Assembly: GCA_016206925.1 (NCBI GenBank)
Contig: JACQQS010000017.1
Span: 2,393-66,392, forward strand
Direction of reading: 5' to 3'
DNA length: 64,000 bases
Source of the DNA: Candidatus Omnitrophota bacterium
GTDB taxonomy: Bacteria > Omnitrophota > Omnitrophia > Omnitrophales > JACQQS01
The position numbers and the translations under genes were made by a program. The notes under the pieces were generated by a model. It worked only from the letters and a program-made list of their open reading frames with translations. It was not told the origin of the DNA and made no database searches. This document shows, in pieces, positions 9,062 to 32,105 of this stretch; position 1 is the first letter of the stretch, and each line of letters starts with the position of its first letter.

Positions 9062-9076
9062 TCAACTTGGGGTCCC

Positions 9077-11016: not shown

Positions 11017-11036
11017 GATTAAACAGGAGAACACAA

Positions 11037-12836: not shown

Positions 12837-12856
12837 ACATTAGAGGAGTTTTTGCC

Positions 12857-14269
12857 ATGTCACTTGCAACTCAAGAATTTAAAACCGTAAAGTACGTATC
12901 AGGGCCGCTCATTTTTGTCGAACAGGGCGAGCGTTTTCCCTACGGCGCCATTCTGGATATTTTGCTTCCCAATGGCAGCATTCGAACCGGACAGGTGCTG
13001 GAAATTTCGAAAACGCATGCTGCCGTTCAAGTACTCGAGCAAACGGCCGGCATCGATGTCAAGGATACCGCAGTCCGCCTCCGCGCCGAAGTTGCAAAAA
13101 TAGGCGTGTCTAAAGATATGGTCGGCCGCACATTCAACGGTGCGGGAAAACCCATCGACGGGCTCCCGGACATTCTGCCGGAAACACAGCTTCCCATCAT
13201 TGGTCAGCCTATCAATCCGGTCCGCCGCGACAAACCCAACGATTTTGTGCAGACAGGTATTTCTTCCATTGATGGATTTAACACATTGGTCCGCGGACAG
13301 AAACTTCCCATTTTTTCCGGCTCCGGTCTGCCCGCCAATGAAATTGCTGCCCAGATTTTGGCGCAGGCGAAAGTACGCGGCGAAGCGGAACAATTCGTCG
13401 TTGTATTTGCCGCCATGGGTATTACACAGCGTGAGGCCGCGTTCTTTCTCGAAAGCTTCGAGGAAACTGGCGCAAAAAGCAACGTCGTGACGTTTTTAAA
13501 TTTGGCCAACGACCCCACCATCGAACGTTTGCTGACACCGCGCACGGCACTTACGGTCGCAGAATTTCTCGCGTTCCATCATGATTACCAGGTTTTAATT
13601 ATCCTCACCGATATGACCAACTACTGCGAAGCGCTTCGTGAGATCGGTACTGCCCGCGAAGAAATTCCAGGCCGCCGCGGCTATCCGGGCTACATGTACA
13701 CCGACTTGGCGCAAATTTACGAACGCGCCGGACGTATCAAAGGCAAGAAAGGCTCGGTCACGCAGATTCCGATCCTTACCATGCCGGACGACGATATTAC
13801 GCACCCTATTGCCGATCTGACCGGTTACATTACGGAAGGGCAAATCGTTTTGTCGCGCCAGCTTCACAGGCAGGGTATTTATCCGCCGATCGATATTCTT
13901 CCCAGCCTCAGCCGTCTTATGAATAATGGCATCGGTGAAGGCAAGACCAGGGCTGATCACCGCGAAGTCGCGAATCAGCTTTACGCGTGTTACGCCAACG
14001 GCCGCGATATCCGTAAACTGGTGGCCATTATCGGGGAAGATGCTTTGTCGGAATTGGACAAGAAATATTTGAAATTTGCAGAGCGCTTCGAAGCGGAAGT
14101 GATCGGGCAAGGCACGATCGACCGCAACATTGAAGACACGCTCCAGCTCGGCTGGCAACTGCTTTCCCTGCTTCCCACTTCGGAACTCAGGCGCGCCAGC
14201 AAAAAAACCATCGCGAAGTATCTGACTCCCATTATGAAAGATGGCGAATCCGCACTACATACCAAGTAG
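12857..14269 (+). CDS. atpB: A/V-type ATPase subunit B
   Basis: 470 aa. Motifs [27 protein letters not shown] and PDDDITHPI. Confidence 0.95.
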
Positions 14270-14617
14270 CAAGTAGCGAAGTAGCAAGGAAAATACAAGA
14301 GAAATTGACTATGATCGAAACTGTTGAGCAAGAGAATTTACAAAAAGGATTTAGAGGTTTAAAAGCCTGGCAAGAATCTTATCAACTCGCTTTGGAGGTA
14401 TACAAAGCAACAGAAGCTTTCCCAATGCAAGAGCGATTTAGCCTCACTTTGCAAATCAGAAAAGCAGCCTTGTCGGTAAGCAGTAATATTGCAGAAGGGT
14501 ACGAAAGAAGATCACGCAAAGAATTCGCTAAGGGTTTAATGAGGTCTGTATGCGCGTAGCATCTCCGTCCATATTTTTTCCTTTTCCCTTGCTACTTGCT
14601 CCTTCGCTACTTGCTAC
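14266..14617 (+). mobile_element. Inverted-repeat-bounded cassette (IVS-like) carrying a four-helix-bundle ORF, inserted between atpB and atpD
   Basis: The left arm GTAGCAAGTAGCGAAGTAGCAAGGAAAA (14266-14293) overlaps the atpB stop. The right arm TTTTCCCTTGCTACTTGCTCCTTCGCTACTTGCTAC (14583-14617) is its reverse complement apart from a 1-nt and a 7-nt indel. Confidence 0.6.
14311..14559 (+). CDS. four-helix-bundle protein (23S rRNA intervening-sequence protein / Avd family), C-terminally truncated, possible pseudogene
   Basis: LKAWQESYQLALEVYKATEAFPMQERFSLTLQIRKAALSVSSNIAEGYERRSRKEF fits the family pattern. It ends at about 82 aa, where family members as I recall are about 115-125 aa. Confidence 0.65.
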   Translation: MIETVEQENLQKGFRGLKAWQESYQLALEVYKATEAFPMQERFSLTLQIRKAALSVSSNIAEGYERRSRKEFAKGLMRSVCA

Positions 14618-14635
14618 CATCTCCAAAGGTGCTTA

Positions 14636-15253
14636 ATGGAACAAGTCTCTCCTACAAGAATGAATTTGATTCAGCGGAAGCTGCAGATCAAAATGGCCAA
14701 ACAAGGCGTCGATCTGCTCAAGAACAAGAGAGACGCGCTCATCCGTGAATTCTTCGAACTGGTGAAGCCGCTTGTCGCGTTGCGGGAAGAATTAAACGCA
14801 AAGCTTTCGCGCGCAGGTTGGAACCTGTTTCTCGCTTCCTCCTACGAAGGCGAAGAGCGCGTTCGTTCTGCCGGAATGGCCGCCAAGGATAATTTTACCG
14901 TAAAGACCAAAAACCGGAATCTCTGGGGCATACGCATTCGCGATATTGAGCCTACTCCCCGCAAACGAAGTCCGCTTGAACGCGGCTATGCGGTCAGCGG
15001 TGTCGGCGCACGCATCGATCAAGCCGCAGACGCATTTGAGGAACTCATCGATACGGTTCTCAAACTTGCGCCGGTTGAACAGAAATTGAAGAAATTTGGC
15101 GAGGAGACAAAGAAAACAACACGGCGCGTTAATGCTCTTGAACAGGCCTTGATTCCGCGCTTGATCTCCGAACGACGTTACATCCAGCAGGTCCTCGAAG
15201 AACGCGAGCGTGAAGATGTATTTCGCCTAAAACACATCAAGCGAAAGCGGTAG
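14636..15253 (+). CDS. atpD: A/V-type ATPase central-stalk subunit D
   Basis: Starts VSPTRMNLIQRKLQIKMAKQGVDLLKNKRDAL and ends TTRRVNALEQALIPRL, typical of D subunits. Confidence 0.9.
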   Translation: MEQVSPTRMNLIQRKLQIKMAKQGVDLLKNKRDALIREFFELVKPLVALREELNAKLSRAGWNLFLASSYEGEERVRSAGMAAKDNFTVKTKNRNLWGIRIRDIEPTPRKRSPLERGYAVSGVGARIDQAADAFEELIDTVLKLAPVEQKLKKFGEETKKTTRRVNALEQALIPRLISERRYIQQVLEEREREDVFRLKHIKRKR

Positions 15254-15350: not shown

Positions 15351-15379
15351 TTGACTTTGCGTTGTAGTGCCCGTACAAT
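15351..15379 (+). promoter_or_regulatory. near-consensus sigma70 promoter for nuo operon 1
   Basis: TTGACT (15351-15356), 17-nt spacer, TACAAT (15374-15379). It lies about 28 nt upstream of the nuoA ORF. Confidence 0.6.
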
Positions 15380-15406: not shown

Positions 15407-15802
15407 ATGTCACCTAGAGGGCTAAATCCAACCATTATGGACTCTTATTATTCGAGTTACCTTTTTATAGCCGTATTTTTCTGCGTGGCGCTCGTTTTTC
15501 CCGTTCTCCCCTTGATTCTCGCCAAGTTTATTGCACCCAAGAAGCCTTCGCCTATCAAACAAGCTACCTACGAATGCGGTGTCGAAGCCACCGGGGACGC
15601 GTGGGCGCAAATTCGCGTTCAGTACTACATATTTGCCCTGATTTTCGTCATATTCGATATTGAAGCTGTTTTCGTTTTCCCCTGGGCCGTTGCCTATCGG
15701 CAACTCGGCCTTTTTGCTTTTGTGGAAATGATGATTTTCCTCGGCATATTAATCGGCGGCTGGGCTTACGCCTGGAAAAAAGGTGCATTGGAATGGGACT
15801 AG
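15407..15802 (+). CDS. nuoA: NADH-quinone oxidoreductase subunit A (copy 1)
   Basis: Three TM helices. YECG motif. Alternative start at 15437 (MDSYY). Confidence 0.85.
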
Positions 15803-16494
15803 CATCCGGCTCCCCCACGGTTGACCAGGGATTAAAGAGCGAATTAGAGAAGGAAGGCGTTGTCCTCACCACGCTTGAACAACTCTACAATTGGGGCAGG
15901 CGCTCATCCATTTGGCCTTTGCAATTCGGTCTTGCCTGCTGCGCGATCGAAATGATCGCCACAGCCTGTGCGCGTTATGATATCGCACGGTTCGGCGCCG
16001 AACTTTTTCGGCCGTCACCCCGTCAAGCCGACCTCATGATTGTAGCCGGAACCGTGACCAAGAAAATGACGCCCCAAGTGGTGCGGCTTTACAATCAGAT
16101 GGCGGAACCAAAATACGTCATCACGATGGGCGCTTGTTCAATCGCAGGAGGACCGTTCAAAGAGGGTTACAACGTACTTCAAGGCATTGACCGGTTTATT
16201 CCGGTTGACGTGCATATTCCGGGCTGCCCCCCAAGACCGGAAGCTCTGCTTGACGGCCTCATGAAACTTCAGAAAAAAATTGACGGCCAATCGATCGAAA
16301 GCGCCGAATGGTACCAGCAAGGCCAGAAACGCGAATTTCCCATTCCTGCTTTCGGCCCGAAGGGTTTGGAACCGCCTTACAATCCAGAAGTCTGGAAGCC
16401 GAGGGAATACGAACAAAAGAAACAAACGGAGGCCGAAGCACGGAAAATTCACGGCACCATTCACGATCCTAAACAATCGGCAGTGTCGCAATGA
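15793..16494 (+). CDS. nuoB: complex I subunit B (copy 1) with a C-terminal extension of about 70 aa
   Basis: N2-cluster motifs [16 protein letters not shown] and PGCPPRPE. A Lys/Glu/Pro-rich tail follows LMKLQKKI. Confidence 0.9.
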
Positions 16495-16958
16495 TTCAGC
16501 TGGAAGAAGTCAAAGCGGAACTTGAGAAGTCACTGGGCGTTCAAACTGAGCTTTCGGGCTCCGGATTGCTTGTTCCTAAAAGCCGGCTCCTCGATGTTTT
16601 TAAGTTTCTGAAAGAGAACGCGAAATATCAGATGGACTATATTTCCAACCTCTGCGCGGTGGACTACCTAAAGCAGAGCCAGATTGAAATTGTTTATCAT
16701 CTTTACTCCATGAGAAATAAAACGGGGCCCATCGGAATAAAAGTCAGAACGGACAGGCAGGATTGCATCGTTCCCTCTGCGACACCGCTCTTCCGAGGAG
16801 CAGAATTTCAAGAGCGAGAAGCATTCGATTTGTACGGAGTGAAATTTGAAGGCCACACCGATTTGCGGAGGATTCTCATGTGGGACGGGTTCGAAGGATT
16901 TCCCATGAGAAAAGATTATGTGCACGAAGACGAGGATAGGTATGTTGAGCACCCTTGA
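16491..16958 (+). CDS. nuoC: complex I subunit C (copy 1)
   Basis: [22 protein letters not shown] motif. Operon position fits. Confidence 0.85.
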
Positions 16959-16968
16959 TAACATTGTA

Positions 16969-17015
16969 GGCGGGGCATCTTGCCCCGCAAATAGCCGGGG
17001 CTAGAAGCCCGGCTA
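16969..17015. repeat. Two tandem GC-rich REP-like hairpins between nuoC and nuoD
   Basis: GCGGGGCA-tct-TGCCCCGC (16970-16988) and TAGCCGGG-gctagaag-CCCGGCTA (16992-17015). Confidence 0.75.
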
Positions 17016-17035
17016 CACAAGTCGAAGGCGATGAA

Positions 17036-18190
17036 ATGACTAATACGATAGAAACACAAACAAGGCCATCTCTCTCAACACAGCAGCTGGAAGTGAGCAT
17101 CGGGCCGCAGCATCCTTCCACGCACGGCGTTTTCAGAATGAACGTCGTCCTAGACGGCGAAACGATCGTCAAGCTGAAACCGGTTATGGGCTATCTTCAT
17201 CGGAATCATGAACAGCTCGCTGAAAATATGAGCTGGCTCGGAAGCATGCCCTATACCGACCGCCTTGATTATTTCTGCTCTATGACAAACAACATAGCTT
17301 ACGCACTCGCCGTTGAAAAACTCATGGGCATCGATGTGCCCGAACGCGCCCAATACATCCGCGTGATCATGGCGGAACTCACCCGGCTCGTTAACCATAC
17401 TGCTCTGGTCGGTTTTCTTCTGAACGATCTCGGCGCATTTTTTACGCCGGTACTTTACGCATTCCGCGAGCGCGAAAAAATTCTGGACTTGTTTGAAAGC
17501 GTTGCCGGCTCGCGAATGATGTGTAACTACATGCGTTTCGGCGGCGTCAAGCTTGATTTGCCCGATGGCTTTGTTGACTGCGCGAAGGCTATCGTGGACA
17601 ATTACCCGCCGTTTCTGGAAGAAATGGAAAGACTTCTCACCAAGAACGAGATCTTGATGGCGCGCTGCCAGAATGTCGGCATTCTTCTCAAGGATCTTGC
17701 TGTCAATGCCAGCGTGACCGGCCCTGTTCTTCGCGCCTCGGGTGTTAACTACGACATTCGAAAAATTGACAAGTACGGCATTTACGACCGGTTCGATTTT
17801 AAAGTCCCGCTGGGCACCGTGGGCGATGTTTACGACCGTTACTATGTCCGCATTCTGGAAATGCGCGAAAGCTTAAAGATCCTGAGGCAGGCCTTTAAGG
17901 AACTGTCTGCTGGCCCGGTGATCAGCCAAAAAGGACTTATTGCCGCAAAGTCACCGAGAAATATGAAAGTGCCTGCCGGTGACGCTTACGGCCGGATCGA
18001 AGCTCCCAAAGGCGAACTGGGTTTTTACATCGTGAGCGAAGGCGGTACCAAGCCGTACAGATATCACGTGCGCGCGCCAAGTTTCATCAACCTGACCATC
18101 CTGGAAGACATGTGCCTCGGCCACAAGGTTGCCGATGCGATCATTATTCTCGGAAGCATCGACATTGTGCTCGGGGAGGTAGATCGATAA
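17036..18190 (+). CDS. nuoD: complex I subunit D (copy 1, short NdhH/FpoD-like form)
   Basis: [21 protein letters not shown], and a C-terminal [16 protein letters not shown]...[11 protein letters not shown]. Confidence 0.9.
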
Positions 18191-18747
18191 TGTGGGGCAC
18201 GGGCGTACTTAAAGGAATGGCCGTAACGATCAAGAATTTTTTCGATACATACACTTCGAAAAACGGAATTTTCACGGTGGAATATCCCGAGAAGCGCCTG
18301 CCTGAAAAAGAACGCTTCCGGAATTTTCCGATACTTGTTTATGATGAAAAACCGGAAGAGCTCCGTTGTGTCGCCTGCGATATCTGCGCCAAAGAATGCC
18401 CACCAAAATGTATTACCATTGTCAAAGCAAAGGATGCCCAGGGCAAACCGCTGAAACAGCCTGAAGTCTTCGACATCGATTTTACCGTTTGCATGAATTG
18501 CGGCATCTGCGAGGAAACCTGCCCCTTTGATGCCATTTACATGGATCATGAATTCGAGCTGGCTGAGTACGACCGCATGGATGCTTTGATTTACAAAAAG
18601 GAGCGGCTTTCCCGCCCTTGGACTCATTTTGAAAAAATCCGCCCCACGGATGCCAAGGAAATCAATGAGAGGCGCGCCAAAGACGCGACAAAAACGGCTG
18701 CAGCTGTTAAACCAGCGCCTCCGCAAGCAAGTAACCAACAAACATAA
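18190..18747 (+). CDS. nuoI: complex I subunit I (copy 1), 2x[4Fe-4S]
   Basis: CVACDICAKECP and CMNCGICEETCP. The ATG at 18190 overlaps the nuoD stop. It sits before nuoH, which is a non-canonical order. Confidence 0.85.
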   Translation: MWGTGVLKGMAVTIKNFFDTYTSKNGIFTVEYPEKRLPEKERFRNFPILVYDEKPEELRCVACDICAKECPPKCITIVKAKDAQGKPLKQPEVFDIDFTVCMNCGICEETCPFDAIYMDHEFELAEYDRMDALIYKKERLSRPWTHFEKIRPTDAKEINERRAKDATKTAAAVKPAPPQASNQQT

Positions 18748-18753
18748 AGGAAT

Positions 18754-18810
18754 GTCATTCCCGCGTAAGCGGGAATCCAGTTGCTAGACCCCCGCTTTCG
18801 CGGGAGTGAC
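18754..18810. repeat. Pair of inverted REP-like units (GTCATTCCCGCGTAAGCGGGAATCCAG type) between nuoI and nuoH
   Basis: ATTCCCGC-gtaa-GCGGGAAT (18757-18776) and CCCGC-tttc-GCGGG (18791-18804). The second unit is an inverted diverged copy of the first. Confidence 0.8.
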
Positions 18811-18822
18811 ATCAAAGAATGC

Positions 18823-19974
18823 ATGGAAAATTTGGATCAAATTTTTGTTCAAGCTAAGAGAACGGTTATGAATCTTGCCGAAAGCGTTCTACCTCAGCCA
18901 CTCGTCCTGCTTGTTTCCATGCTGATAAGCATCGGTGTAATTGCGGCAATCGGACCCGTGATCATGATGTACCTCACATGGCTCGAGCGTAAGGTCGTCG
19001 GCAGAATTCAAAACCGCATAGGCCCAAATCGCGTCGGAAAGTTCGGCTTGCTTCAACCAATCGCGGACGGCATTAAAATGCTGACTAAAGAAGACATCGT
19101 TCCCGAAGGCGCCGACCATATCCTGCATTTTCTGTCCCCCGTCCTGGTTGTAGTCCCGGCACTTCTTGTGCTCGGTCTTCTTCCTTGGGGACGCAATATG
19201 GCCGCGGTAGATTTACAAGTCGGTCTCCTTCTTTTCTTTGCCATTACTTCGACGGGCACGCTTTCCATATTTCTCGGCGCCTGGGGCTCACGCAACAAGT
19301 TCTCTCTCTTGGGCGCGCTCCGAGCGGTAGCTCAGCTAATCTCCTATGAGATTCCCCAGGTTTTCTCTGCAGTCGTCGTGATCATGCATACGCAAACCAT
19401 TTCTATTGTGGAGATTGTAAACGCACAGCCGGGATTTAACTGGTTCGTATTCACCCCATGGGGATTTACGGGACTTGTACTTTTTTACATTGCAAGCGTC
19501 GCGGAATGCAACAGAACACCCTTCGATCTGCCGGAAGCCGAATCCGAAATAGTCGCGGGGTTCCACACCGAGTATAGCGGCATGAAGTTTGCGTTATTCT
19601 ACATGGCGGAATTCCTGCAGGTTTTCTCTTTGTCCGCTCTCGCCGCCGCCCTTTTTCTCGGAGGATGGCAAGGTCCCTTTTTACCCAGCTGGATTTGGTT
19701 TTTCTTAAAAACCTACGGATTGATTTTTATCATGCTTTGGTTTCGCGGCACGTTTCCGCGTCTCCGCGTGGACCAGCTCATGGGGTTTGCCTGGAAATTT
19801 CTCTTGCCCATGAGCATGATCAATATTGTTGTGGTAGGCATCTGGACTTATGCTTCTCCGATCGTTGCTTGGGTGCTCGGTATTCTTATTATCGCGATTT
19901 CATTCGGCGTTCTGGCAAAATTAAATACCCGCTACCACATCGAGCGCAACCGTAAATTCATATTGGCGGAATAA
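18823..19974 (+). CDS. nuoH: complex I subunit H (copy 1)
   Basis: WLERKVVGRIQNRIGPNRVG and the RTPFDLPEAESEIVAGFHTEYSG motif. The start is uncertain (18823 or 18868). The ORF-track start at 18781 translates the REP hairpin. Confidence 0.85.
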   Translation: MENLDQIFVQAKRTVMNLAESVLPQPLVLLVSMLISIGVIAAIGPVIMMYLTWLERKVVGRIQNRIGPNRVGKFGLLQPIADGIKMLTKEDIVPEGADHILHFLSPVLVVVPALLVLGLLPWGRNMAAVDLQVGLLLFFAITSTGTLSIFLGAWGSRNKFSLLGALRAVAQLISYEIPQVFSAVVVIMHTQTISIVEIVNAQPGFNWFVFTPWGFTGLVLFYIASVAECNRTPFDLPEAESEIVAGFHTEYSGMKFALFYMAEFLQVFSLSALAAALFLGGWQGPFLPSWIWFFLKTYGLIFIMLWFRGTFPRLRVDQLMGFAWKFLLPMSMINIVVVGIWTYASPIVAWVLGILIIAISFGVLAKLNTRYHIERNRKFILAE

Positions 19975-19980
19975 AAGCAC

Positions 19981-20484
19981 ATGATCGCTGCATTTTATCT
20001 CATCTCTGTGGTTTTGATCGTCTCAGCGGTCCTTGCGGTTTCTCTACGCAATCTAATCTACTGTACACTGTGCGCATCGGTAGTCTTTATCAGCTCTGCC
20101 GCCCTCTTTTTTCTTCTGAAGGCGGACTTCATAGGCGTCGTTCAAATCCTCATCTACGTCGGCGCCGTTGCGACACTACTTTTATTTGCCGTTATGCTCA
20201 CGAAAAATCTGGTCAGCAGGCAATATTATGTCGGCCAAAAGAGAAAATGGTCTTACGGCATTTTTACGGCTTCGGCTGTACTTTGGGTGCTTATCGGTTC
20301 CATCCGTTCGCAGACAAATCTTGCGGAACTTGTCACAGCCGATCATCAACTTTCCGTCGTTTCGCTCGGAAAAGAAATGCTGACCGCGTTTTTGCTTCCT
20401 TTTGAGGTGGCGTCCCTCCTTTTAACAGCCGCCATGATCGGAGGTATCGTTATCGCCTTGGAGGAGAAAAAGAAGTCGTCATGA
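19981..20484 (+). CDS. nuoJ: complex I subunit J (copy 1)
   Basis: Polytopic, with VQILIYVGAVATLLLF and a C-terminal FEVASLLLTAAMIG. Confidence 0.85.
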   Translation: MIAAFYLISVVLIVSAVLAVSLRNLIYCTLCASVVFISSAALFFLLKADFIGVVQILIYVGAVATLLLFAVMLTKNLVSRQYYVGQKRKWSYGIFTASAVLWVLIGSIRSQTNLAELVTADHQLSVVSLGKEMLTAFLLPFEVASLLLTAAMIGGIVIALEEKKKSS

Positions 20485-20792
20485 CTATTCCGCTTTCGCA
20501 CTATTTGGCCGTAAGCGCGGCGCTCTTCTCGATAGGTCTCTTTGGAGCGCTTACACGCAGAAGCGCAATTATTGTGCTGATTGGAATTGAAATTATGATG
20601 AATGCCGCCAATTTGAATTTAATTGCTTTCTGGCGCTATTCGGACGGCACACGCGCAACCGGACAATTGTTCACGTTTTTCGGCATTACCATTGCGGCAG
20701 CCGAAGTCGCGGTCGGTTTGGCGATCGTTATCTCCGTTTACCGGCTATTTCAGTCTACAAACGTGAATGAAATCAGTGATATGAAGAAATAG
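20481..20792 (+). CDS. nuoK: complex I subunit K (copy 1)
   Basis: 103 aa, 3 TM helices. IGIEIMMNAANL and AAAEVAVGLAIV. Confidence 0.9.
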   Translation: MTIPLSHYLAVSAALFSIGLFGALTRRSAIIVLIGIEIMMNAANLNLIAFWRYSDGTRATGQLFTFFGITIAAAEVAVGLAIVISVYRLFQSTNVNEISDMKK

Positions 20793-20800
20793 GAGTGTGT

Positions 20801-20826
20801 GTCATTCCCACGAAAGCGGGGATGAC
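20801..20826. repeat. REP-like hairpin unit GTCATTCCCACGAAAGCGGGGATGAC between nuoK and nuoL
   Basis: Same unit family as 18754-18810. It is a self-complementary imperfect palindrome. Confidence 0.75.
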
Positions 20827-20836
20827 AAACTTAACC

Positions 20837-22870
20837 ATGATTCTCGATCATCTCTATCTCATACCTTTACTGCCGTTCCTGGCCACGGCATTTACGGCTT
20901 TCCTCAAAAGGCCCCAGCGCTCGCTTTCAAGCGGAACGGTTATTCTAGCCATGTCCGTGTCCTGCGTTCTTGCGCAATGGGCACTCTGGACTACAATCAC
21001 TCAAGCACACCACGGCGAAGTTTTCCGGCACGCAACCAGCTTTGAATGGCTCAGGACAGGAACGCAGGCGCTTCAGCTCGGCCTCGTCCTAGATCCTCTT
21101 TCTGCTTCAATGGTTTCCATGGTCACATTTGTTGGGCTGCTTATCTTTATCTATTCAACGGGCTATATGCACGAGGATAAGAACTACACCCGCTTTTTCT
21201 GCTTTCTGTCTCTTTTCGGAGGATCTATGCTCGGCCTCGTGCTTTCGAATAGTCTTGTTCTCATGTTTATTTTTTGGGAACTGGTGGGGGTCTGCTCCTA
21301 CGCGCTCATCGGATTCTGGTATCACAAACCGTCCGCTGCCGAAGCAGCCAAAAAGGCATTTATCACCACACGCATAGGCGATGTGGGATTCTTCATCGGC
21401 CTTCTTTATCTTTATGCGAAATCGGGAAACCTTATGCTTTTCGATTCCACCGCCGGTCTCGGCGTTCTCGACCAGGCTAATTTGGCGAAGCTGGAGCAAA
21501 TGACGGTCACGCTACCGCTTTTCGGCGTCGCAGCCGTTTCAACCGTAATTGCCCTTTTGCTTTTTTGCGGCGCCATGGGCAAATCGGCTCAGTTCCCGCT
21601 TCACGTTTGGCTGCCGGACGCCATGGAAGGCCCCACTTCCGTTTCTGCGCTCATTCATGCCGCGACCATGGTGGCTGCCGGAGTATTTATGATCGCGCGC
21701 ATGTTTCCCATTTTCGCACTGGGGACGCGTCACGGAGAGATGTCCACCGCAATGACGGTCGTTGCAAGCATCGGAAGTTTCACCGCGCTTTTTGCCGCGC
21801 TCATTGCCGTCGCGCAGAATGACATCAAGCGTGTTCTGGCTTACTCAACAATAAGTCAGTTGGGCTACATGGTTACCGGTCTAGGGCTCGGCAGTGTCGC
21901 TTCGGGATTTTTCCATCTTATCACGCATGCTTTCTTTAAAGCCCTTCTCTTTCTCGGATCGGGCAGTGTTATTCACGGCTGCCACGGTGAACAGGATATG
22001 TTGAAAATGGGAGGACTCAGAAAAACCATGCCGACAACCGCATGGACTTACTTTGTGGGAACGCTCGCGCTCGCTGGAATCTTTCCTTTATCGGGATTCT
22101 GGAGCAAGGATGAGATTCTTCTTTATGCGTACCACCAAAACAAAGCGATTTACTTTATCGGATCGGCTGGCGCATTTCTAACGGCTTTCTATATGTGCCG
22201 GCAGATCGTGCTTGTTTTCTTCGGAAAACAGCGCTCGCATGATTTCCACGCGCACGAAAGTCCTGGTTCCATGCTCTGGCCGCTCAGAATCCTGGCTTTT
22301 TTTGCAATTACACTCGGCATCGTCGGTTGCCCATATTATCGCGGAAATTTGTTCCACCACTTCATTTCACCCGAACATCACGGCTTAGAACCATCCATGA
22401 CGGTCATGCTGAGTTCAACGGTTATTGCTCTATCCGGATTGATTTTGGGATTCCTGGTCTACGGCCGATCCAAAGCCGTTGAAAAAGGAACGGATCCGCT
22501 CAGGAATACGCTTGGCCTCCTTCACATCATTCTCGAAAACAAGTTTTATTTCGACGAGCTTTACCGAAACACGGCTCTTCGTGCTGCAAACTTTCTTGCC
22601 TCATTCTTTCGCGCCTTTGATCAGCTCATCATTGACGGGATTCTCCATACGGTCGGATTCATCGCGCTCACTCTATCTACGTTTAACCAGTGGTGCGATA
22701 ATTTCTTTATTAACGGCGGTTTCGACCGGAGTTGCTCGGGCATTCTGCGGGGCGGCGAAACAATGTCGGCTTTGCAGACGGGCCGCATTCAGGATTACCT
22801 GCGATTCACAGCTTTGGGAACCGTGTTTTTTTATTTGGCGTACATGATAACCTTGATTTTGCAGCCGTGA
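20837..22870 (+). CDS. nuoL: complex I subunit L (copy 1) with a lengthened lateral-helix region
   Basis: MILDHLYLIPLLPF start (alternative ATG at 20822 inside the hairpin). [23 protein letters not shown]-terminal amphipathic region carries a 26-aa tandem duplication. Confidence 0.9.
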   Translation: MILDHLYLIPLLPFLATAFTAFLKRPQRSLSSGTVILAMSVSCVLAQWALWTTITQAHHGEVFRHATSFEWLRTGTQALQLGLVLDPLSASMVSMVTFVGLLIFIYSTGYMHEDKNYTRFFCFLSLFGGSMLGLVLSNSLVLMFIFWELVGVCSYALIGFWYHKPSAAEAAKKAFITTRIGDVGFFIGLLYLYAKSGNLMLFDSTAGLGVLDQANLAKLEQMTVTLPLFGVAAVSTVIALLLFCGAMGKSAQFPLHVWLPDAMEGPTSVSALIHAATMVAAGVFMIARMFPIFALGTRHGEMSTAMTVVASIGSFTALFAALIAVAQNDIKRVLAYSTISQLGYMVTGLGLGSVASGFFHLITHAFFKALLFLGSGSVIHGCHGEQDMLKMGGLRKTMPTTAWTYFVGTLALAGIFPLSGFWSKDEILLYAYHQNKAIYFIGSAGAFLTAFYMCRQIVLVFFGKQRSHDFHAHESPGSMLWPLRILAFFAITLGIVGCPYYRGNLFHHFISPEHHGLEPSMTVMLSSTVIALSGLILGFLVYGRSKAVEKGTDPLRNTLGLLHIILENKFYFDELYRNTALRAANFLASFFRAFDQLIIDGILHTVGFIALTLSTFNQWCDNFFINGGFDRSCSGILRGGETMSALQTGRIQDYLRFTALGTVFFYLAYMITLILQP

Positions 22871-22873
22871 TCT

Positions 22874-24421
22874 ATGGAATTGCCTGCGCTTAGCTTAATT
22901 ACATTTTCCCCGCTTGCCGGCGCATTCTTGCTGATATTTTTATCCGGCAAGGACGAAAAGATCATAAAAGGCGTTTCTTTGGCTGCAAGCTTTCTGCCTT
23001 TGATCATACTGACCAATGTGTGGTCCCGGTTTGACCCGTTGTCGGCATCACTGCAATTGATTGAGCGCGTTCCTTGGATACCGGTAATGGGCGCGGAGTA
23101 TTTTCTCGGCGTGGACGGTCTTGGCATGTTGCTCGTTCTCCTGACGGCCATTATTTCCCCCATCGCTGTCCTTGCATCTTTCGGGATACATGAGCGCCCG
23201 AAAGCATACATGCTTTTATTTCTGATTCTTCTTACAGGAATTTTTGGCGTATTCACGGCGCAAAATTTCTTTCATTTCTTCCTATACTGGGAAATCGGCC
23301 TTGTGCCCATGTTTTTTCTCATCAAGCAATGGGGCGCGGAAAACCGCGATTATGCGGCTTTTAAATTTTTCGTGTTTACGCTTTTTGGAAGTATCGCAAT
23401 GCTTCTTGCGTTCCAAGTCATCTTTCTTGCGACAGGCACGTTTGACTTTGTGAGGCTTTCCGAAATGGGCAGAAGCGGCGAGCTTTCAAAACTTCTCGCA
23501 CAATTCGCATCCAAGGCAGGAATTCCGTGGCAGGCAAGCACACTTTCCCTCATTGGATTTCTGGCCGTTTCTCTGGCATTTACAATCAAGGTGCCCATCT
23601 GGCCGTTCCATACCTGGCTCCCCGACGCACACACGCAGGCGCCAACACCGGCTTCCATAGTGCTGGCCGCTCTTCTGCTTAAAATGGGAACGTACGGTTT
23701 TTTAAGAATCGCCATGCCGCTTTTTCCGGAGACCGCCAAAGCGCTTGCTGAACCTCTGGCTTATTTCGCGCTCGCAAGCATCATATTCGGCGCGTTTGCA
23801 GCCATGGCCCAGCGGGATCTAAAACGCATGATTGCCTACTCCTCGATCAATCACATGGGTTACTGCATGCTTGGAATTTTTGCAATCGCTTCTATGTCTT
23901 CGACGGATGTTGAAGCCAAGGCCGCCGCGTTGGGAGGATCCATTCTTCAAATGTTTAACCATGGAATCACCGCTGCCGCACTTTTCTTCATGGTGGGTGT
24001 GATTTATGACCGCAAGCATACCCGCAATTTAGAGAAATTTGGAGGTCTGCGCGCCATTATGCCGGTCTATGCCGGACTTATGGTCATTTCTACATTTGCC
24101 TCTGTCGGTCTCCCCGGATTGAACGGGTTTGTAAGCGAATTCCTGATTTTCCGCGGGACTTTTGTTGTGTTTCAACCCCTTACCATTCTGGCGACGATCG
24201 GGCTGGTTGTGACGGCTTTGTACTACCTGCGCATGATCCAGCAGATGTTCCTCGGCCCGCTCAATCCGGATTGCGAAGGCCTTCCCGACATGTCAAAAAG
24301 GGAAATATTCGTCGCTTCGCCGCTCATCGCGCTTATGTTTTTGATCGGAATATGGCCGGGACCTATGCTCAAGCTTACGAATGCGGTGGCTCTCAATTTA
24401 ATCGGAGTTTTTCAGCTATGA
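22874..24421 (+). CDS. nuoM: complex I subunit M (operon 1, first copy)
   Basis: WLPDAHTQAPTPASIVLAALLLKMGTYGFLR. 515 aa. Confidence 0.9.
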   Translation: MELPALSLITFSPLAGAFLLIFLSGKDEKIIKGVSLAASFLPLIILTNVWSRFDPLSASLQLIERVPWIPVMGAEYFLGVDGLGMLLVLLTAIISPIAVLASFGIHERPKAYMLLFLILLTGIFGVFTAQNFFHFFLYWEIGLVPMFFLIKQWGAENRDYAAFKFFVFTLFGSIAMLLAFQVIFLATGTFDFVRLSEMGRSGELSKLLAQFASKAGIPWQASTLSLIGFLAVSLAFTIKVPIWPFHTWLPDAHTQAPTPASIVLAALLLKMGTYGFLRIAMPLFPETAKALAEPLAYFALASIIFGAFAAMAQRDLKRMIAYSSINHMGYCMLGIFAIASMSSTDVEAKAAALGGSILQMFNHGITAAALFFMVGVIYDRKHTRNLEKFGGLRAIMPVYAGLMVISTFASVGLPGLNGFVSEFLIFRGTFVVFQPLTILATIGLVVTALYYLRMIQQMFLGPLNPDCEGLPDMSKREIFVASPLIALMFLIGIWPGPMLKLTNAVALNLIGVFQL

Positions 24422-25962
24422 TCCTGTCTTCAACAATTTTCATCCCCCTGGGCGCTGCTACCCTCGTGATGCTTATGAAACCCCAATGGAGACGTGAAAT
24501 CAAAATCATCTCAGCCATGTCCGGGGTGCTCTGTCTCGTCATTTCCGCATACCTCTGTCTTACCTATGACACGGCTAAAGGCGGGCTTCAATTTGTCGAA
24601 ATGCGCCCATGGATTCCGACGCTCGGCGCAAGTTACTACCTCGGCGTGGACGGCATGAACCTCTCTTTAGTACTGCTTACCGCGTTCATCATGCTCACCG
24701 GAGTTTTTATCGCCTGGAATATAGACGACCGGACAAAGGAATTTTTCGCGCTTTTTCTCATTCTCGTCTCCGGCGTTTTCGGCGTGTTCGTCTCTATGGA
24801 TCTTTTTCTGCTTTTTATTTTCTACGAGCTGGCCGTTCTACCTATGTACCTCCTGATCGGCTATTGGGGTTCCACCAGAAAAGAGTACGGCGCCATGAAA
24901 CTGACGCTCTATCTTTTAGCGGGAAGCGCGCTTCTCTTTTTTGGAATGCTTGCCCTTTACTTTAAGGCCAATATCTGGAGTTTCAATCTGACCGAACTGG
25001 CAAAGATCAGCTATCCGGAATCTTTCCAGAAATGGGTTTTCCCTTTTATTTTTGTCGGCTTCGCCGTTCTCGGAGGCCTCTGGCCTTTGCACACCTGGTC
25101 CCCCGTCGGACACGTTGCGGCTCCAACTTCCGTGAGCATGCTGCACGCCGGCGTTCTTATGAAACTCGGAGCTTACGGCTGCCTCCGTGTCGCTATCCTG
25201 ACTTTCCCGCAGGGCGCTCAATTTTGGGCACCTTACATCGCTGCGCTGACGGCAGTGAATATTGTTTACGGCTCCATGGTAGCCATGGTGCAGACGGATA
25301 CAAAATATGTCATTGGATATTCCAGCGTGAGTCATATGGGATTTGTGATACTCGGACTTTGTACGCTGAACGAGGCGGGAATATCGGGCGCCGTGCTTCA
25401 AATGTTTTCGCATGGAATCATGACGGGGCTTTTCTTTGCCGTGGTCGGCCGGTTCATTTACGACCGTACGCACACACGAGAACTGAAGGACTTGGGCGGC
25501 CTTAGAAAACCCCTGCCCTGGGCTAACGTGGCGTTTATTATTGCCGGCCTGGCTTCGATGGGTCTGCCCGGCTTATCCGGCTTTATTGCCGAACTCCATA
25601 TTTTAATCGGCGTTTGGGAACGGTTCCCCCTCATTGCCGCACTCTGCGGAATTGCCATCGTCATCACCGCGGCATATATTTTGAGGGTTATTCACCGCAC
25701 ATTTTACGGAGAGCTGAATCCGAAATTTGCAAGTCTCCCGCCGGAAACCATTCAGGAAAAAGTGAGTGTTGCTATACTTTGCGCAGTGCTCATCGTAGTC
25801 GGTATATATCCCGTCGTTCTCCTTGATACCATCCACTCGGCGGTTGATCCCACGGTTAAGCTGCTTCACCACGTGCAGCCGGCGGTGCCGCTTGAGCAAA
25901 TAACGCCGCCAACAACCTCGGTTCAAGCTGTAACCGGCGCCGTAGCAACGGTGACGGTATGA
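24418..25962 (+). CDS. nuoM: complex I subunit M-like (operon 1, second, more divergent copy)
   Basis: ATGA overlap with the preceding nuoM. HTWSPVGHVAAPTSVSMLHAGVLMKLGAYG. 514 aa. Confidence 0.85.
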   Translation: MILSSTIFIPLGAATLVMLMKPQWRREIKIISAMSGVLCLVISAYLCLTYDTAKGGLQFVEMRPWIPTLGASYYLGVDGMNLSLVLLTAFIMLTGVFIAWNIDDRTKEFFALFLILVSGVFGVFVSMDLFLLFIFYELAVLPMYLLIGYWGSTRKEYGAMKLTLYLLAGSALLFFGMLALYFKANIWSFNLTELAKISYPESFQKWVFPFIFVGFAVLGGLWPLHTWSPVGHVAAPTSVSMLHAGVLMKLGAYGCLRVAILTFPQGAQFWAPYIAALTAVNIVYGSMVAMVQTDTKYVIGYSSVSHMGFVILGLCTLNEAGISGAVLQMFSHGIMTGLFFAVVGRFIYDRTHTRELKDLGGLRKPLPWANVAFIIAGLASMGLPGLSGFIAELHILIGVWERFPLIAALCGIAIVITAAYILRVIHRTFYGELNPKFASLPPETIQEKVSVAILCAVLIVVGIYPVVLLDTIHSAVDPTVKLLHHVQPAVPLEQITPPTTSVQAVTGAVATVTV

Positions 25963-27473
25963 ATTATATGACGGTTCTCTATCATTTAATTCCCGAAACT
26001 ACGATTACTATTCTCATTTTTGTCATTCTGGGCATTGATCTTTTCCTGATTAGAAATAAGCCTTTGACCTTTCGAAATCAATTCATCGGTTTGACTACAG
26101 GAATGGGTCTGGCCTTGATTACCATCTGGATTGTCCTAAAGCAGCTCCCTCTCCAGGAGCCCGTCAGGCTTCTAGGAGATATGCTTGTTTTGGATCCTAT
26201 CGCTATTTTTACGAAGATCATCCTTATGGTCATCACCGTAATCACCGTGCTCTTTGCAATAAGCGGTGACTTCACGAAGCATGTTTCTGAATTTTATGCC
26301 ATGCTTCTCTTTGCTTTGCTCGGCATGATTTTTATGATTCAGGCCGAAGAGCTCATCATGATCTTCGTCGCGCTGGAATTGACCAGCTTGAGTCTCTACA
26401 TCATGACAGCCTTCTCAACCAGACTCCGCGAATCAGCCGAAGCAGCGCTCAAATATTTCCTTTTCGGCTCGCTTTCCTCCGCTTTCATGTATTTCGGCCT
26501 CTCCTACATTTACGGTGTAACTGGGTTTACGGATCTTACCAATATTGCCGCCCATTTGACGCCGCTTCCCCGGCTCATGATTTCAACGGATCATATCCTT
26601 GTAATTGTTGGAATGCTCTTCGTTATGGTCGGATTGGGATTTAAGATCGCCGTCGTTCCTTTCCATCTCTGGGCACCCGAAGCTTATCAGGGCGCGCCGA
26701 CACCCGTAACGGCCTATATTGCGACGGGATCTAAACTGGCAAGCTTTGTAGTTCTCAGTAAAGTTCTTTTTCTGGGCTTCCGGCAGATGGAAGGTAGCAG
26801 TTTCCACTATTTTTGGGAAGCCGGATGGTCACCTTTACTCGTCACCATCAGCATTCTCTCGATGACGCTCGGAAATTTGGCGGCCATGCGGCAGAAAAAT
26901 TTAAAACGCCTTTTGGCCTATTCCAGTATTGCGCACAGCGGATATATCCTGTTGGGAGTTGTCGCGGCAACGCATATCGGTACGGTAGCCATGTTTTACT
27001 ATTTGGTCGCCTACGTGTTCACAAATCTCGGAGCATTTGGATTTATCACAGCCGTTGCCAAACACACCGGGGGCGAAAACCTTGAAAACCTGAAAGGCCT
27101 CGCGAAACGCTCGCCGCTGCTTTCGCTGCTCATGAGCATATTCGTTCTTTCCCTCGCAAGCATTCCGCCGCTCGGGGGATTTTTCGGCAAGTTCTACTTA
27201 TTTCTCTCGGTCGTCGGCCGTGATCAGGAGCGGTTCGGCCTTTTGTGGGTCGCCGGCATCGGAATTATTAACACCATGCTTTCGCTTTACTACTATTTGA
27301 AGATCTTGAAGCAGATGTACATTTTGAAATCAGACAACGAGACAAGAATCGAAATACCGTTTTACATGAGTTCCGCGCTTGCGCTTTGCGCCGTCATCGT
27401 CCTTTTGACAGGCATCTTTCCCCAGCCGCTCGTAACCATCCTCAGCCGCTCCATCACATTTTTTACCGTTTAG
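25959..27473 (+). CDS. nuoN: complex I subunit N (copy 1)
   Basis: HLWAPEAYQGAPTPVTAYIATGSKLA and LLAYSSIAHSGY. Confidence 0.9.
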   Translation: MNYMTVLYHLIPETTITILIFVILGIDLFLIRNKPLTFRNQFIGLTTGMGLALITIWIVLKQLPLQEPVRLLGDMLVLDPIAIFTKIILMVITVITVLFAISGDFTKHVSEFYAMLLFALLGMIFMIQAEELIMIFVALELTSLSLYIMTAFSTRLRESAEAALKYFLFGSLSSAFMYFGLSYIYGVTGFTDLTNIAAHLTPLPRLMISTDHILVIVGMLFVMVGLGFKIAVVPFHLWAPEAYQGAPTPVTAYIATGSKLASFVVLSKVLFLGFRQMEGSSFHYFWEAGWSPLLVTISILSMTLGNLAAMRQKNLKRLLAYSSIAHSGYILLGVVAATHIGTVAMFYYLVAYVFTNLGAFGFITAVAKHTGGENLENLKGLAKRSPLLSLLMSIFVLSLASIPPLGGFFGKFYLFLSVVGRDQERFGLLWVAGIGIINTMLSLYYYLKILKQMYILKSDNETRIEIPFYMSSALALCAVIVLLTGIFPQPLVTILSRSITFFTV

Positions 27474-27503: not shown

Positions 27504-27531
27504 TTGACTTTAATTCTTATATAAGTATACT
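27504..27531 (+). promoter_or_regulatory. sigma70-type promoter candidate for nuoJKLMN cluster 2
   Basis: TTGACT (27504-27509), 16-nt spacer, TATACT (27526-27531). Confidence 0.5.
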
Positions 27532-27614: not shown

Positions 27615-28121
27615 GTGATTACTTTCTTATCTTTTATTTTCACCCTCGTCGGACTCACAACAGCCATTCTTGTGGTAACGAGCAAGGTTCCGATGAACGC
27701 CGCGCTGTTTCTCGTTGTGACTCTCTTCACCGTTGCGGCAAATTACGTTCTCCTCGGCGCTGAATTCCTGGCCGCTGTTCAGGTCATTGTCTACGCCGGC
27801 GCCATCATGGTGCTGATTATTTTTGTCATACAGCTTGTGGGTTTTCAACCTTCCAAGGACGGTTCCGTTCAGAAGCAAACCCCTATCGCCATCGTTGCCG
27901 CAGGCCTCCTATTCGTACAAATCGCTTTTTACACAGTCCGTTCGTTGACTCAACTAAACGGAATCCAGAAACCCGTCCAAGCCGCAGTCGACCACACGGC
28001 ATCCTTCAGCCAAACTCTATTCACGAAGTACCTGCTGCCTTTCGAAACGGCCTCGATACTTCTGCTCGTCGCCATTGTCGGAACGGTCCTGCTGGCACAA
28101 CACAAAGGCATCCGCGAATGA
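27615..28121 (+). CDS. nuoJ: complex I subunit J (copy 2)
   Basis: GTG start. [16 protein letters not shown] and [14 protein letters not shown]. Confidence 0.85.
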
Positions 28122-28420
28122 ACCTGGATACCATAACGCTCATATTTGGGACGGGCCTTTTTTTCATAGGTATAACAGGCGTTCTCATCCGGAGAAACGC
28201 CATTGTCGTCTTAATGTGTATCGAACTCATCCTGAACGGCGTCAACTTAACTTTCATCACATTCAGCCACATACATGGAAACCTGGCCGGCCAGGTTGCG
28301 GCTATTTTTGTTATTGTAGTTGCGGCAGCCGAAGCAGCTGTCGGGCTTGCTATTGTCATTGCTGTATTCCGCCGTCATCCTTCCATTAACATCGATGAAT
28401 TTAACGTGCTTAAATGGTAG
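28118..28420 (+). CDS. nuoK: complex I subunit K (copy 2)
   Basis: [12 protein letters not shown] and [12 protein letters not shown]. Confidence 0.9.
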
Positions 28421-30408
28421 CGCTTATTCCTTTACTTCCCGCTTTGGGTGCGGCCGTCAATGGCCTGTTCGGGCGAAGATACATCAAGGAAAACGCCCAT
28501 TGGGTTGCCGTTGGCGCCTGCGGTCTTTCTTTTCTGGCAGCTGTTTTTACTTTCACAAGCTTTCTACGCGAGCCGCAGAGCTACGAAGTGCGGATGTTTG
28601 AGTGGATTGCTGTAGATCCCTTGCGCATCGAACTGGCGTTCCTCGTTGATCCTCTAAGCATGCTTATGGCCATGGTTGTTACGGGAGTGGGTTTTCTCAT
28701 TCATATCTATTCGATCGGTTACATGCACGGCGACGGCGGATATCACCGCTATTTTGCTTACCTCAATCTTTTCATGACGGCCATGCTTCTTCTGGTCTTG
28801 GCCAACAATTATCTTTTGATGTTTCTCGGCTGGGAGGGCGTTGGGCTTTGTTCATACCTGCTCATTGGATTTTGGTTTCATAAAGATTCTGCCGCCAATG
28901 CCGCAAAGAAAGCTTTCCTCGTAAACCGGATCGGAGACGCCGGATTCATTTTGGCCCTTTTCCTAATTTATGGGCAATGCAAAAGCCTGGTCTTTCATGA
29001 TGTCATGTCCCAGGCACATGCTTTCTCAACCGGCTTGGCCACGGCTATTGGAATTCTCTTATTTGTCGGAGCCATGGGGAAATCGGCCCAGATTCCACTT
29101 TACGTATGGCTGCCGGACGCTATGGAAGGACCTACTTCTGTCTCCGCATTGATTCATGCGGCAACCATGGTCACGGCCGGTGTCTATATGGTGGCTAGAA
29201 ATTCGGCCATCTATGCGCTGGCACCGGCTGCACTTAATTTCATGGCTTCTGTCGGCGCAATTACCGCACTTTTTGCGGCAAGCATTGCCCTGGTTCAAAG
29301 GGACATAAAGAAGGTACTTGCTTATTCGACGGTAAGCCAGCTCGGTTACATGTTTCTCAGCTGCGGTGTGGGCGCTTATGTAAGCGGCATGTTTCATTTA
29401 ATGACACACGCATTCTTCAAAGGCCTTCTTTTCCTCGGATCCGGAAGCGTGATTCACGCGCTCGGCGGCGAACAAGACATGCAGCACATGGGTGGTTTAA
29501 GAAAACATATGCCCATTACCGCAGCAACGTTTACCATCGCAACCCTCGCCATCGCCGGAATTCCGCCGCTTGCCGGCTTCTGGAGCAAGGATGAAATCCT
29601 GGCGGAAACCTTCAAGAACGGGCATAAACTCCTCTGGGGAATCGGTGCATTAACGGCGCTCATGACATCCTTCTACATGTTCCGCCTGCTTTTCCTGACC
29701 TTCTACGGAAAGTCGCGCGTTCACCATGACAAGGAACATCATCTTCATGAATCGCCCCGGACCATTACGATTCCTCTTTCGATACTTGCCTTTCTTTCGA
29801 TTTTTGGCGGCGTCCTGCCCGGCTTCCCTCCCGAACGAGGCTGGATCCACGGTTTTCTTTCTCCGGCGATCTCAAGCGTTCACCATGCGAAGGAAATCCT
29901 GCATGGCGCAGCCGAACACGGCGCGCATGCCCTGTCATTGCTGGACTTGACATTGATGGCTGTTTCTATCGGCGCGGCGCTGATGGGTTTGGCTGCCGCG
30001 TGGTACTTTTATCTCATCCGGCCGGCGCTTCCCGGACAATGGGCTTCCCGATTGAAATCAATTCACACACTCCTATTCAATAAATATTGGGTGGATGAAA
30101 TATATCTCAGTGTATTTGTGCGTCCCCTGCTTAAGCTCTGTAACCGCCTGTGGGATTTTGATCTGCAGGGCATTGATGGAATCGTAAACGGAGCATCACG
30201 CGTTGCCGTAAAAAGCGCTGAAGAGTCGGGCAGATTTGATCTCAAATTTATCGATGGCGTTATAAACGATATCGGAAAACTTTTCGACAAGTGGCACGAC
30301 ATCTTAAGACGGTGGCAAACGGGTTTCGTACAGAATTATGCGCTCGTCATGGTCATCGGTGTATTGGTTCTGGCAACCAGCATGTTTTTCATCCCATATC
30401 ACTTTTGA
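28414..30408 (+). CDS. nuoL: complex I subunit L (copy 2) with a lengthened lateral-helix region
   Basis: [23 protein letters not shown]-terminal [11 protein letters not shown].../[11 protein letters not shown]... 26-aa tandem repeat. Confidence 0.9.
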
Positions 30409-30416
30409 AAAATTTA

Positions 30417-30516
30417 AAATTAAAAGTGAAAAATGTAAAAGAAAAAACTAAAGAAATTTATTAAAGCAAAAAAGTTCAAAAAGCTCTTTATCTTTTTACT
30501 TTTTCATTTTTAATTT
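30417..30516. repeat. AT-rich imperfect inverted repeat (about 26-bp arms, 48-nt loop) between nuoL2 and nuoM
   Basis: AAATTAAAAGTGAAAAATGTAAAAGA (30417-30442) versus the reverse complement of TCTTTTTACTTTTTCATTTTTAATTT (30491-30516). One mismatch and two 1-nt indels. Confidence 0.65.
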
Positions 30517-30530
30517 CTAAGAGGATTTTT

Positions 30531-32102: not shown

Positions 32103-32105
32103 CTC

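Follow-up and report, generated by a model that had tools for sequence, protein, structure and literature searches.

A further member of the 2M complex I class: a 12-gene nuo operon without nuoEFG in a Candidatus Omnitrophota bacterium

A class of complex I termed 2M is defined, in passages of papers that cite Chadwick et al. 2018 (PMC6606698, PMC9040806, PMC7117926, PMC8004040, PMC7419157), by a second nuoM gene, which gives four antiporter-like subunits (L, M, M, N), and by an insertion of about 26 amino acids in the lateral helix of NuoL. The same passages state that many 2M clusters have no genes for the NADH-oxidising N-module (NuoEFG), and a link to ferredoxin as well as reverse electron transport are proposed there. 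The lateral-helix (HL) insertion of 26 amino acids is reported in a section of PMC9040806, a nuoABCDHJKLMMN cluster of Chloroflexus in a section of PMC8004040, and reverse electron flow is put forward as a hypothesis for the 2M enzymes of Nitrospira in a section of PMC6606698. Here we describe a stretch of 64,000 nucleotides from a Candidatus Omnitrophota bacterium (assembly GCA_016206925.1, contig JACQQS010000017.1, positions 2,393 to 66,392 of the forward strand), referred to as the window. It harbors, at positions 15407-27473 on the plus strand, 12 tightly packed genes in the order nuoA-B-C-D-I-H-J-K-L-M-M-N (operon 1). Judged from its sequence, operon 1 encodes a 2M complex I as described by Chadwick et al. 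2018 and belongs to a class that is already known. We consider it likely that the region is one operon for such an enzyme, composed of the 11 core subunits that make up complex I without NuoEFG and of a fourth antiporter-like subunit. The locus adds an Omnitrophota example to a complex I variant class known since 2018. The identity of the added NuoM, a lysine missing from transmembrane helix (TM) 7 of one copy and the occurrence of a long NuoL helix with only one nuoM in a neighboring gene set all bear on the number of protons that are moved.

The genes of operon 1 were identified by profile matches to Pfam and NCBIfam. All 12 are present and lie on the plus strand within the range given by the original prediction: nuoA at 15407-15802 (131 amino acids; PF00507, E=1e-37), nuoB at 15793-16494 (233 amino acids; PF01058, with the cysteines of cluster N2 and a C-terminal extension of about 60 amino acids), nuoC at 16491-16958 (155 amino acids; PF00329, E=6e-40), nuoD at 17036-18190 (384 amino acids, a short form; PF00346, E=9e-96), nuoI at 18190-18747 (185 amino acids; Fer4_7 and Fer4 domains), nuoH at 18781-19974 (open reading frame (ORF) of 397 amino acids; PF00146, E=1e-115; NF004741 passed), nuoJ at 19981-20484 (167 amino acids; PF00499), nuoK at 20481-20792 (103 amino acids; PF00420), nuoL at 20795-22870 (ORF of 691 amino acids; PF00662 and PF00361; NF005141 passed), the first nuoM copy (M1a) at 22874-24421 (515 amino acids; PF00361, TIGR01972), the second nuoM copy (M1b) at 24418-25962 (514 amino acids; PF00361, TIGR01972) and nuoN at 25959-27473 (504 amino acids; PF00361, TIGR01770; key residues canonical). 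No NuoE, NuoF or NuoG domain was detected within operon 1 with Pfam and NCBIfam, and the operon contains no genes beyond the 12 nuo genes. This agrees with the prediction that nuoEFG are missing and that the partner for electron input is not encoded in the operon. The ATGA overlap expected between the two nuoM genes is visible at 24418-24421, and a second one joins M1b to nuoN at 25959-25962. The position of nuoI before nuoH is the reverse of the usual order. Reading of the junction with nuoD places the true start of nuoI at the ATG of a TAATG overlap at 18190. For nuoH a start at 18823 is likely, which would give 383 amino acids, the length of the orthologue in a related locus (L001), and nuoL likely starts at 20837, giving 676 amino acids as in NCBI protein P0122. 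M1b is 100% identical to NCBI MBI4430350.1.

The core subunits A, B, C, D, H, I, J, K and N are all present, including their Fe-S and quinone-site residues. The Fe-S chain is intact, NuoI contributing two 4Fe-4S motifs and NuoB the N2 cysteines, and so is the quinone pocket, formed by the His and Tyr motifs of NuoD and by NuoH. The four large membrane subunits are likewise intact and under purifying selection.

The lateral helix of NuoL, which had been predicted to be lengthened, carries a 26-residue insertion (ALRAANFLASFFRAFDQLIIDGILHT) at 22574-22651 (+). The insertion represents a second copy of an FDxxxIDGxxH/N unit and is positioned directly after the FDELY motif. For comparison, 80 species-representative loci were collected with the second NuoM as query. 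In the alignment of the NuoL tails, an extra block of 26-28 residues occurs in every 2M locus and in none of the single-M (1M) relatives. The tail after FDELY has a median length of 103 amino acids (range 98-131) in 32 two-M loci and of 75 amino acids in 26 single-M loci; that of the window comprises 101 amino acids. The insertion thus cleanly separates 2M from 1M loci, which bears out the suggestion that a second NuoM combined with a longer NuoL helix marks operon 1 as 2M-type. Among the best 120 homologues of NuoL, all of the 116 with a measurable tail showed the long form, with the exception of one truncated sequence. An AlphaFold2 model based on 62 homologues (predicted local distance difference test score 87.5) predicts short helices at residues 554-567 and a continuous helix at 569-639 within the lateral helix region (554-639), followed by TM16 at residues 651-675; the inserted residues are modelled as helix. 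Solved NuoL/NdhF chains deviate from this model by 3.5-4 Å (root mean square) in the core and by 10-11 Å when the helix and TM16 are included. As a helix, the 26 residues would add about 39 Å, which is roughly the width of one antiporter-like subunit. The best solved match of NuoL is cyanobacterial NdhF1 (E=3e-139; 40-42% identity). In its core, NuoL is 44-51% identical to every single-M type among the collected NuoL sequences, and this comparison gave no clear signal for a shared source of NuoL and the extra NuoM.

An identical 12-gene order with nuoI before nuoH was found in five Omnitrophota-like loci at 60-85% identity (L001, L162, L164, L165 and L168) and in Verrucomicrobia (L172 and L173; in the contig collection, the index lists the L172 NuoL in 61 blocks). 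These operons also lack EFG and have NuoL tails of 96-101 amino acids, and in the five Omnitrophota loci the nuoM genes overlap by 4 nucleotides as in the window. They differ from operon 1 only in their flanks, and none of them has an ATPase operon upstream. Dozens of Chloroflexota have related 2M operons. As described in passages of PMC8004040 and PMC7117926, for example for Cagg_1620-1631 of Chloroflexus aggregans (nuoABCDHJKLMMN), two adjacent nuoM genes are located between nuoL and nuoN, as in the window. The Chloroflexota enzymes share with the window the absence of nuoEFG and the same insertion in the lateral helix of NuoL; both of their NuoM proteins are orthologous to those of the window (44-52% identity for M1a, 49-57% for M1b) and form sister clades to them in the tree. 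However, nuoB, C, D and I mostly lie outside the Chloroflexota cluster or the order is H-I, whereas operon 1 unites all 12 genes, nuoI preceding nuoH, and the phylum is a different one. The EFG genes adjoin none of these operons except L057. With occurrences in Omnitrophota, Verrucomicrobia and Chloroflexota, the architecture is widespread, and operon 1 adds another case. The 2M enzyme of Nitrospira (CI_1 of N. moscoviensis, 'clade 3'), as far as it is treated in passages of PMC6606698, is similar to operon 1 in its long NuoL, its second NuoM and the absence of N-module genes. The role proposed there, with a ferredoxin link and reverse electron transport, would be the same. The same passages place the Nitrospira enzyme in a different, independently evolved clade, and no lithoautotrophic context is indicated in the window.

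The original prediction regarded the second nuoM as a divergent extra gene. Two nuoM genes are indeed present and the second is unusual, but it is not the added one, as it corresponds to the sole NuoM type of single-M relatives. The only NuoM of related 11-gene EFG-less operons (from Planctomycetota, Dehalococcoidia, Gemmatimonadota and others) always matches M1b best, with 49-55% identity, and among the collected loci an M1a-like gene was seen only in 2M loci. In a neighbor-joining tree with 100 bootstraps, the clade of 'second' plus 'only' NuoM proteins received a support of 98/100 and that of the 'first' NuoM proteins (M1a) 81/100. The latter is placed beside canonical NuoM proteins resembling M2, the NuoM of the second nuo set in the window, although the joint clade is supported by only 45/100; a clade uniting both copies of operon 1 received 9/100. 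Pairwise identities amount to 44% between M1a and M2, 39% between M1b and M2, and 35% between M1a and M1b. Based on these supports and identities, the added gene is the first nuoM (M1a), which adjoins nuoL, and M1b is the native NuoM of the clade; M1a was recruited from another complex I lineage and not made by tandem duplication. On the question of which copy is the added one, the relevant passages of PMC7117926 and PMC8004040 disagree.

M1a is canonical at all key residues (TM5 Glu, TM7 Lys, TM8 Lys and TM12 Glu), as is every other antiporter-like subunit in the window apart from M1b. M1b retains TM5 Glu, TM8 Lys and TM12 Glu and harbors a leucine in place of TM7 Lys. This lysine is replaced in all 78 sequences of the M1b type, by leucine in 77 and by isoleucine in one, both where the protein is the 'second' NuoM (45/45) and where it is the 'only' one (33/33). 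In the 17 sequences displayed, the M1b type additionally possesses a histidine on TM8 (SMLHAGVLMK), four residues before TM8 Lys. In E. coli NuoM the TM7 lysine is K234, the partner of E144, and in current models this Glu/Lys pair is part of the pumping relay (PMC9271201). In comparison with a relative of 85% identity, the ratio of non-synonymous to synonymous substitution rates (dN/dS) is 0.067 for M1a and 0.034 for M1b, at synonymous sites near saturation. These values indicate strong purifying selection on both copies. An explanation of M1b as a pseudogene or misassembly is ruled out by the intact ORF, by the 4-nucleotide overlap kept in five Omnitrophota relatives and by the dN/dS of 0.03.

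The subunits of the peripheral arm were also analyzed. The long C-terminal tail predicted for NuoB was confirmed: 86 amino acids follow the GCPP motif, compared to about 25 in most relatives and 24 in the second NuoB of the window. NuoB passes NCBIfam model NF011394 (357.6 bits, cut-off 312). As this model itself comprises 264 residues, long-tailed NuoB proteins form an established subfamily. The tail is kept in L001, and its first part is common to the stand-alone NuoB of Chloroflexota 2M enzymes. NuoD is as short as predicted, with 384 amino acids, and aligns with Thermus Nqo4 in two pieces, the segment equivalent to Nqo4 residues 310-336 being absent. Its quinone-site His and Tyr motifs are present, NiFe cysteines are absent, and it reaches 464 bits with TIGR01962 (cut-off 459). 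NuoI harbors two CxxCxxCxxxCP motifs for 4Fe-4S clusters and a C-terminal tail rich in Lys, Ala and Pro; its score with TIGR01971 (102.5 bits) is below the cut-off of 113. The best solved homologues of NuoB and NuoD are Thermus Nqo6 and Nqo4, with cyanobacterial NdhK and NdhH as a close second, whereas the best solved homologue of NuoI is that of E. coli.

Other identities of the enzyme were considered. A canonical 14-subunit NADH:quinone oxidoreductase was rejected, as NuoE, NuoF and NuoG occur only in a separate nuoA-I cluster on the minus strand. An F420H2 dehydrogenase (Fpo) was rejected as well, since the Fpo models (FpoC, D, H, I and L) stay well short of their cut-offs (FpoD, for instance, reaches 352 bits where 600 are required), and no FpoF-like gene is present. 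The cyanobacterial NDH-1L (PDB 6hum, 6l7o), which is ferredoxin-dependent, has 11 core subunits without NuoEFG like the enzyme of the window, but differs in having three antiporter-like subunits and a lateral helix of normal length. Its ferredoxin-docking subunits NdhS, NdhV and NdhO have no counterpart in operon 1. The NCBIfam models of NdhH, NdhI and NdhF score under their cut-offs, and NuoB, NuoD and NuoI of the window are no closer to the cyanobacterial proteins than to those of Thermus or E. coli. Neither NdhS/V/O nor a closest match of the Q-module to NdhH/I/J/K, which would characterize a ferredoxin NDH-1 of the cyanobacterial type, was found, although the enzyme may nonetheless work with ferredoxin. 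No conserved accessory gene flanking the operon was found in the relatives. Small ORFs after nuoN in these relatives were examined as accessory subunits and rejected, as they are unrelated toxin-antitoxin-like genes.

A complete conventional complex I had been predicted next to operon 1. Such a gene set exists, but it is not one operon: it is split into nuoJKLMN at 27615-33578 (+) and nuoABCDEFGHI at 43655-35827 (-). Both halves converge on a gene for an OmpL-like porin (33846-35126), and this split arrangement including the porin is kept in the closest relative (L174). Inverting the segment 27615-35126 once would be enough to regain the usual nuo order. The nuoA-I cluster contains the only nuoEFG genes of the window, at a distance of 8-12 kb from operon 1. 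The second nuoJKLMN follows operon 1 after 141 nucleotides in the window and after 3 nucleotides in L165; in L001/L174 it is located on the same contig behind a giant ORF of 3475 residues and is followed by the porin gene and convergent nuoI-to-E. The 2M operon and a second nuoJKLMN are thus linked in three genomes, and this combination, rather than that of ATPase and nuo genes, may be the conserved unit.

The second NuoL (L2; 28414-30408) has a tail of 100 amino acids with an insertion at the same position as in the 2M NuoL, although only one nuoM follows. Long tails of at least 95 amino acids occur in all 116 measurable sequences among its best 120 homologues, which include proteins of Tectomicrobia, Nitrospirota, Nitrospinota, Ca. 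Manganitrophus and Methylomirabilales. In relatives at greater distance, EFG-less single-M clusters tend to have the long-tailed NuoL and clusters containing EFG the short-tailed one. The AlphaFold model of the second NuoL is helical at the insertion, with low confidence in the distal helix. This NuoL is 60% identical to a NuoL of Ca. Manganitrophus (P0251). Complex_I_1/2 of that organism, according to passages of PMC9040806, combine an HL-inserted NuoL with a single NuoM, and in this they correspond to the second nuoJKLMN set of the window and not to operon 1. One might imagine that the complex with NuoEFG also receives the extra canonical M1a in trans, so that both complexes would contain four antiporter-like subunits from a shared pool. 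We judge this rather improbable; if true, it would account for the family of NuoL proteins from Nitrospirota, Nitrospinota, Tectomicrobia and Methylomirabilales that combine a long helix with a single nuoM.

In the enzyme proposed here, the membrane arm would be arranged in the order L - M1a - M1b - N, corresponding to the gene order, and the longer NuoL helix would clamp the extra subunit. Electron transfer between a low-potential cytoplasmic carrier and (mena)quinone would be coupled to the translocation of up to five H+ per 2 e-; alternatively, the enzyme may run in reverse. The donor would dock directly on the surface formed by NuoI, NuoB, NuoC and NuoD and would most likely be reduced ferredoxin. 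Ferredoxin is favored because the operon travels without nuoEFG in several phyla, because a gene of the futalosine pathway for menaquinone (PF02621) is located near the operon in two relatives (L162 and L164), and because of the energy available. According to standard potentials, electron transfer from NADH to menaquinone yields about 47 kJ per 2 e-, which is less than the approximately 72 kJ that five H+ cost at 150 mV, whereas transfer from ferredoxin (-420 to -500 mV) to menaquinone yields 67-82 kJ. Several points weigh against this interpretation. The best identity to a PDB chain is the 40-42% of NuoL, no PDB chain closely matches M1b and no assembled 2M enzyme has been solved; it is for this reason that we infer the subunit order and the H+ stoichiometry. 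Because one residue of the Glu/Lys pair, the TM7 lysine, is missing from M1b, translocation of five protons is uncertain. The subunits most similar to NuoB and NuoD are those of the NADH-dependent Thermus enzyme, which does not point to ferredoxin. The energetic comparison presumes that the quinone of this genome is menaquinone, and a NuoEFG set is encoded 8-12 kb away.

This proximity favors an alternative in which the 2M enzyme is NADH-dependent and borrows NuoEFG from the neighboring nuoA-I cluster, the N-module being shared between two complexes. In line with such sharing, no fewer than two genomes (the window and that of L001/L174) have the two nuo clusters linked, the nuoJKLMN half immediately follows the 2M operon of L165, and NuoB and NuoD have their best matches in Thermus Nqo6 and Nqo4. 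However, no EFG genes lie within 9-10 kb of the operon in relatives from Verrucomicrobia and other Omnitrophota. NuoD of operon 1 also lacks the segment corresponding to Nqo4 residues 310-336, a region in which the EFG-associated second NuoD has an enlarged insertion, and the energy released between NADH and menaquinone is, going by standard potentials, too little for five protons. A shared N-module is considered unlikely. The number of five protons is itself challenged by the possibility that the native M1b, having no TM7 Lys, does not pump, and that the added canonical NuoM restores four protons and not five. The consistent replacement of this residue (78/78 M1b-type sequences) next to otherwise canonical antiporter-like subunits and the central role of the Glu/Lys pair in current pumping models (PMC9271201) argue for this. 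Nevertheless, the M1b type is the only NuoM of many single-M operons and is strongly conserved (dN/dS 0.034); it keeps TM5 Glu, TM8 Lys and TM12 Glu, and the gained TM8 His could substitute for the missing lysine. We regard mere restoration of four protons as unlikely.

A third explanation concerns the genes upstream. The original prediction combined operon 1 with the preceding ATPase operon to a dedicated ion-motive module, possibly based on Na+. The ATPase operon is of the A/V type and comprises nine genes at 6377-15253 (+), a G/H-like gene followed by I, K, E, C, F, A, B and D. The spacer between the stop of atpD (15253) and the start of nuoA (15407) is 153 nucleotides long, in agreement with the predicted distance of about 150. 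Co-regulation of both operons as one module would be compatible with their location on the same strand, with the sequence scan, which revealed no terminator-like site in the 153-nucleotide spacer, and with a Chloroflexi locus (L076) in which V-ATPase genes follow nuoN, the sole case among about 80 more distant loci. However, the ATPase is absent from the upstream flank in all five relatives in which this flank is visible; instead, a peptidase (L001), ArsB (L162 and L164), a GAF-ANTAR regulator (L165) and AbiEi (L168) are encoded there. Moreover, the spacer contains a strong promoter-like site (TTGACT-17-TACAAT, 15351-15379, +) that matches 10 of 12 consensus positions 28 nucleotides upstream of nuoA. 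This site and TTGACT-16-TATACT at 27504-27531 (+), before the second nuoJ, are two of the three best promoter-like matches in 14 kb. Total counts in the promoter and terminator scan did not exceed those in shuffled sequence and site positions serve as a hint only, so a promoter of its own for nuoA is no more than suggested. With respect to the coupling ion, the c subunit of the ATPase (8604-8950, 115 amino acids) has subunit K of Thermus thermophilus as its best solved homologue, and both proteins share the GTG(I/V)AQ and LPET motifs with the same Gln...Pro-Glu-Thr residues of the ion site. The Thermus enzyme is proton-coupled. The motif thus gives no specific Na+ signal, and the nuo antiporter-like subunits carry ordinary H+-pump residues. 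Neither Na+ coupling of the ATPase nor the dedicated module is supported by these results. A co-regulated ATPase-nuo module is very improbable, the position of operon 1 after the A/V-ATPase genes is incidental and peculiar to this genome, and a tempting link is thereby removed.

Some further features of the ATPase operon were observed. The c subunit has a signal-like hydrophobic N-terminal extension before its single hairpin. Between the c-subunit gene and atpE, a perfect inverted repeat of 18 nucleotides with a loop of 63 nucleotides is located at 8952-9050. A stretch of about 350 nucleotides between atpB and atpD (14266-14617) is bounded by a 23-nucleotide inverted repeat of 96% identity (14266-14288 and 14595-14617) and contains a truncated ORF of the 23S ribosomal RNA intervening sequence type (14305-14559; four-helix bundle, PF05635). 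It looks like a small element inserted into the ATPase operon. By eye, the arms of the repeats at 8952 and 14266 seem to be built from short near-repeats.

In the second complex I gene set, NuoD (40865-42250, -) comprises 461 amino acids, about 70 of which form an insertion that precedes the conserved C-terminal block, and NuoG (37481-39061, -) has only 526 amino acids with a partial molybdopterin domain. Directly after nuoI, an ORF of 178 amino acids (35285-35821, -) encodes a protein that matches no Pfam family and has a hydrophobic segment at its N-terminus; L174 has a gene for 170 amino acids in its place. Directly upstream of the second nuoA, a Rieske-type ferredoxin, a HesB/IscA-type protein for Fe-S assembly and a NifS/IscS-type cysteine desulfurase are encoded at 43662-45631 (-). 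Beside the 2M operon of L001/L174, L166 and L170 lie giant ORFs (3475, 1774 and 2208 residues, respectively) that have no Pfam match and fit the giant genes reported for Omnitrophota. GC content is even over the whole window, the remainder of which contains housekeeping genes only. At 55464-59247 (-), genes for a LuxC-like acyl-CoA reductase, a LuxE-like acyl-protein synthetase and a class-III aminotransferase are arranged in a row.

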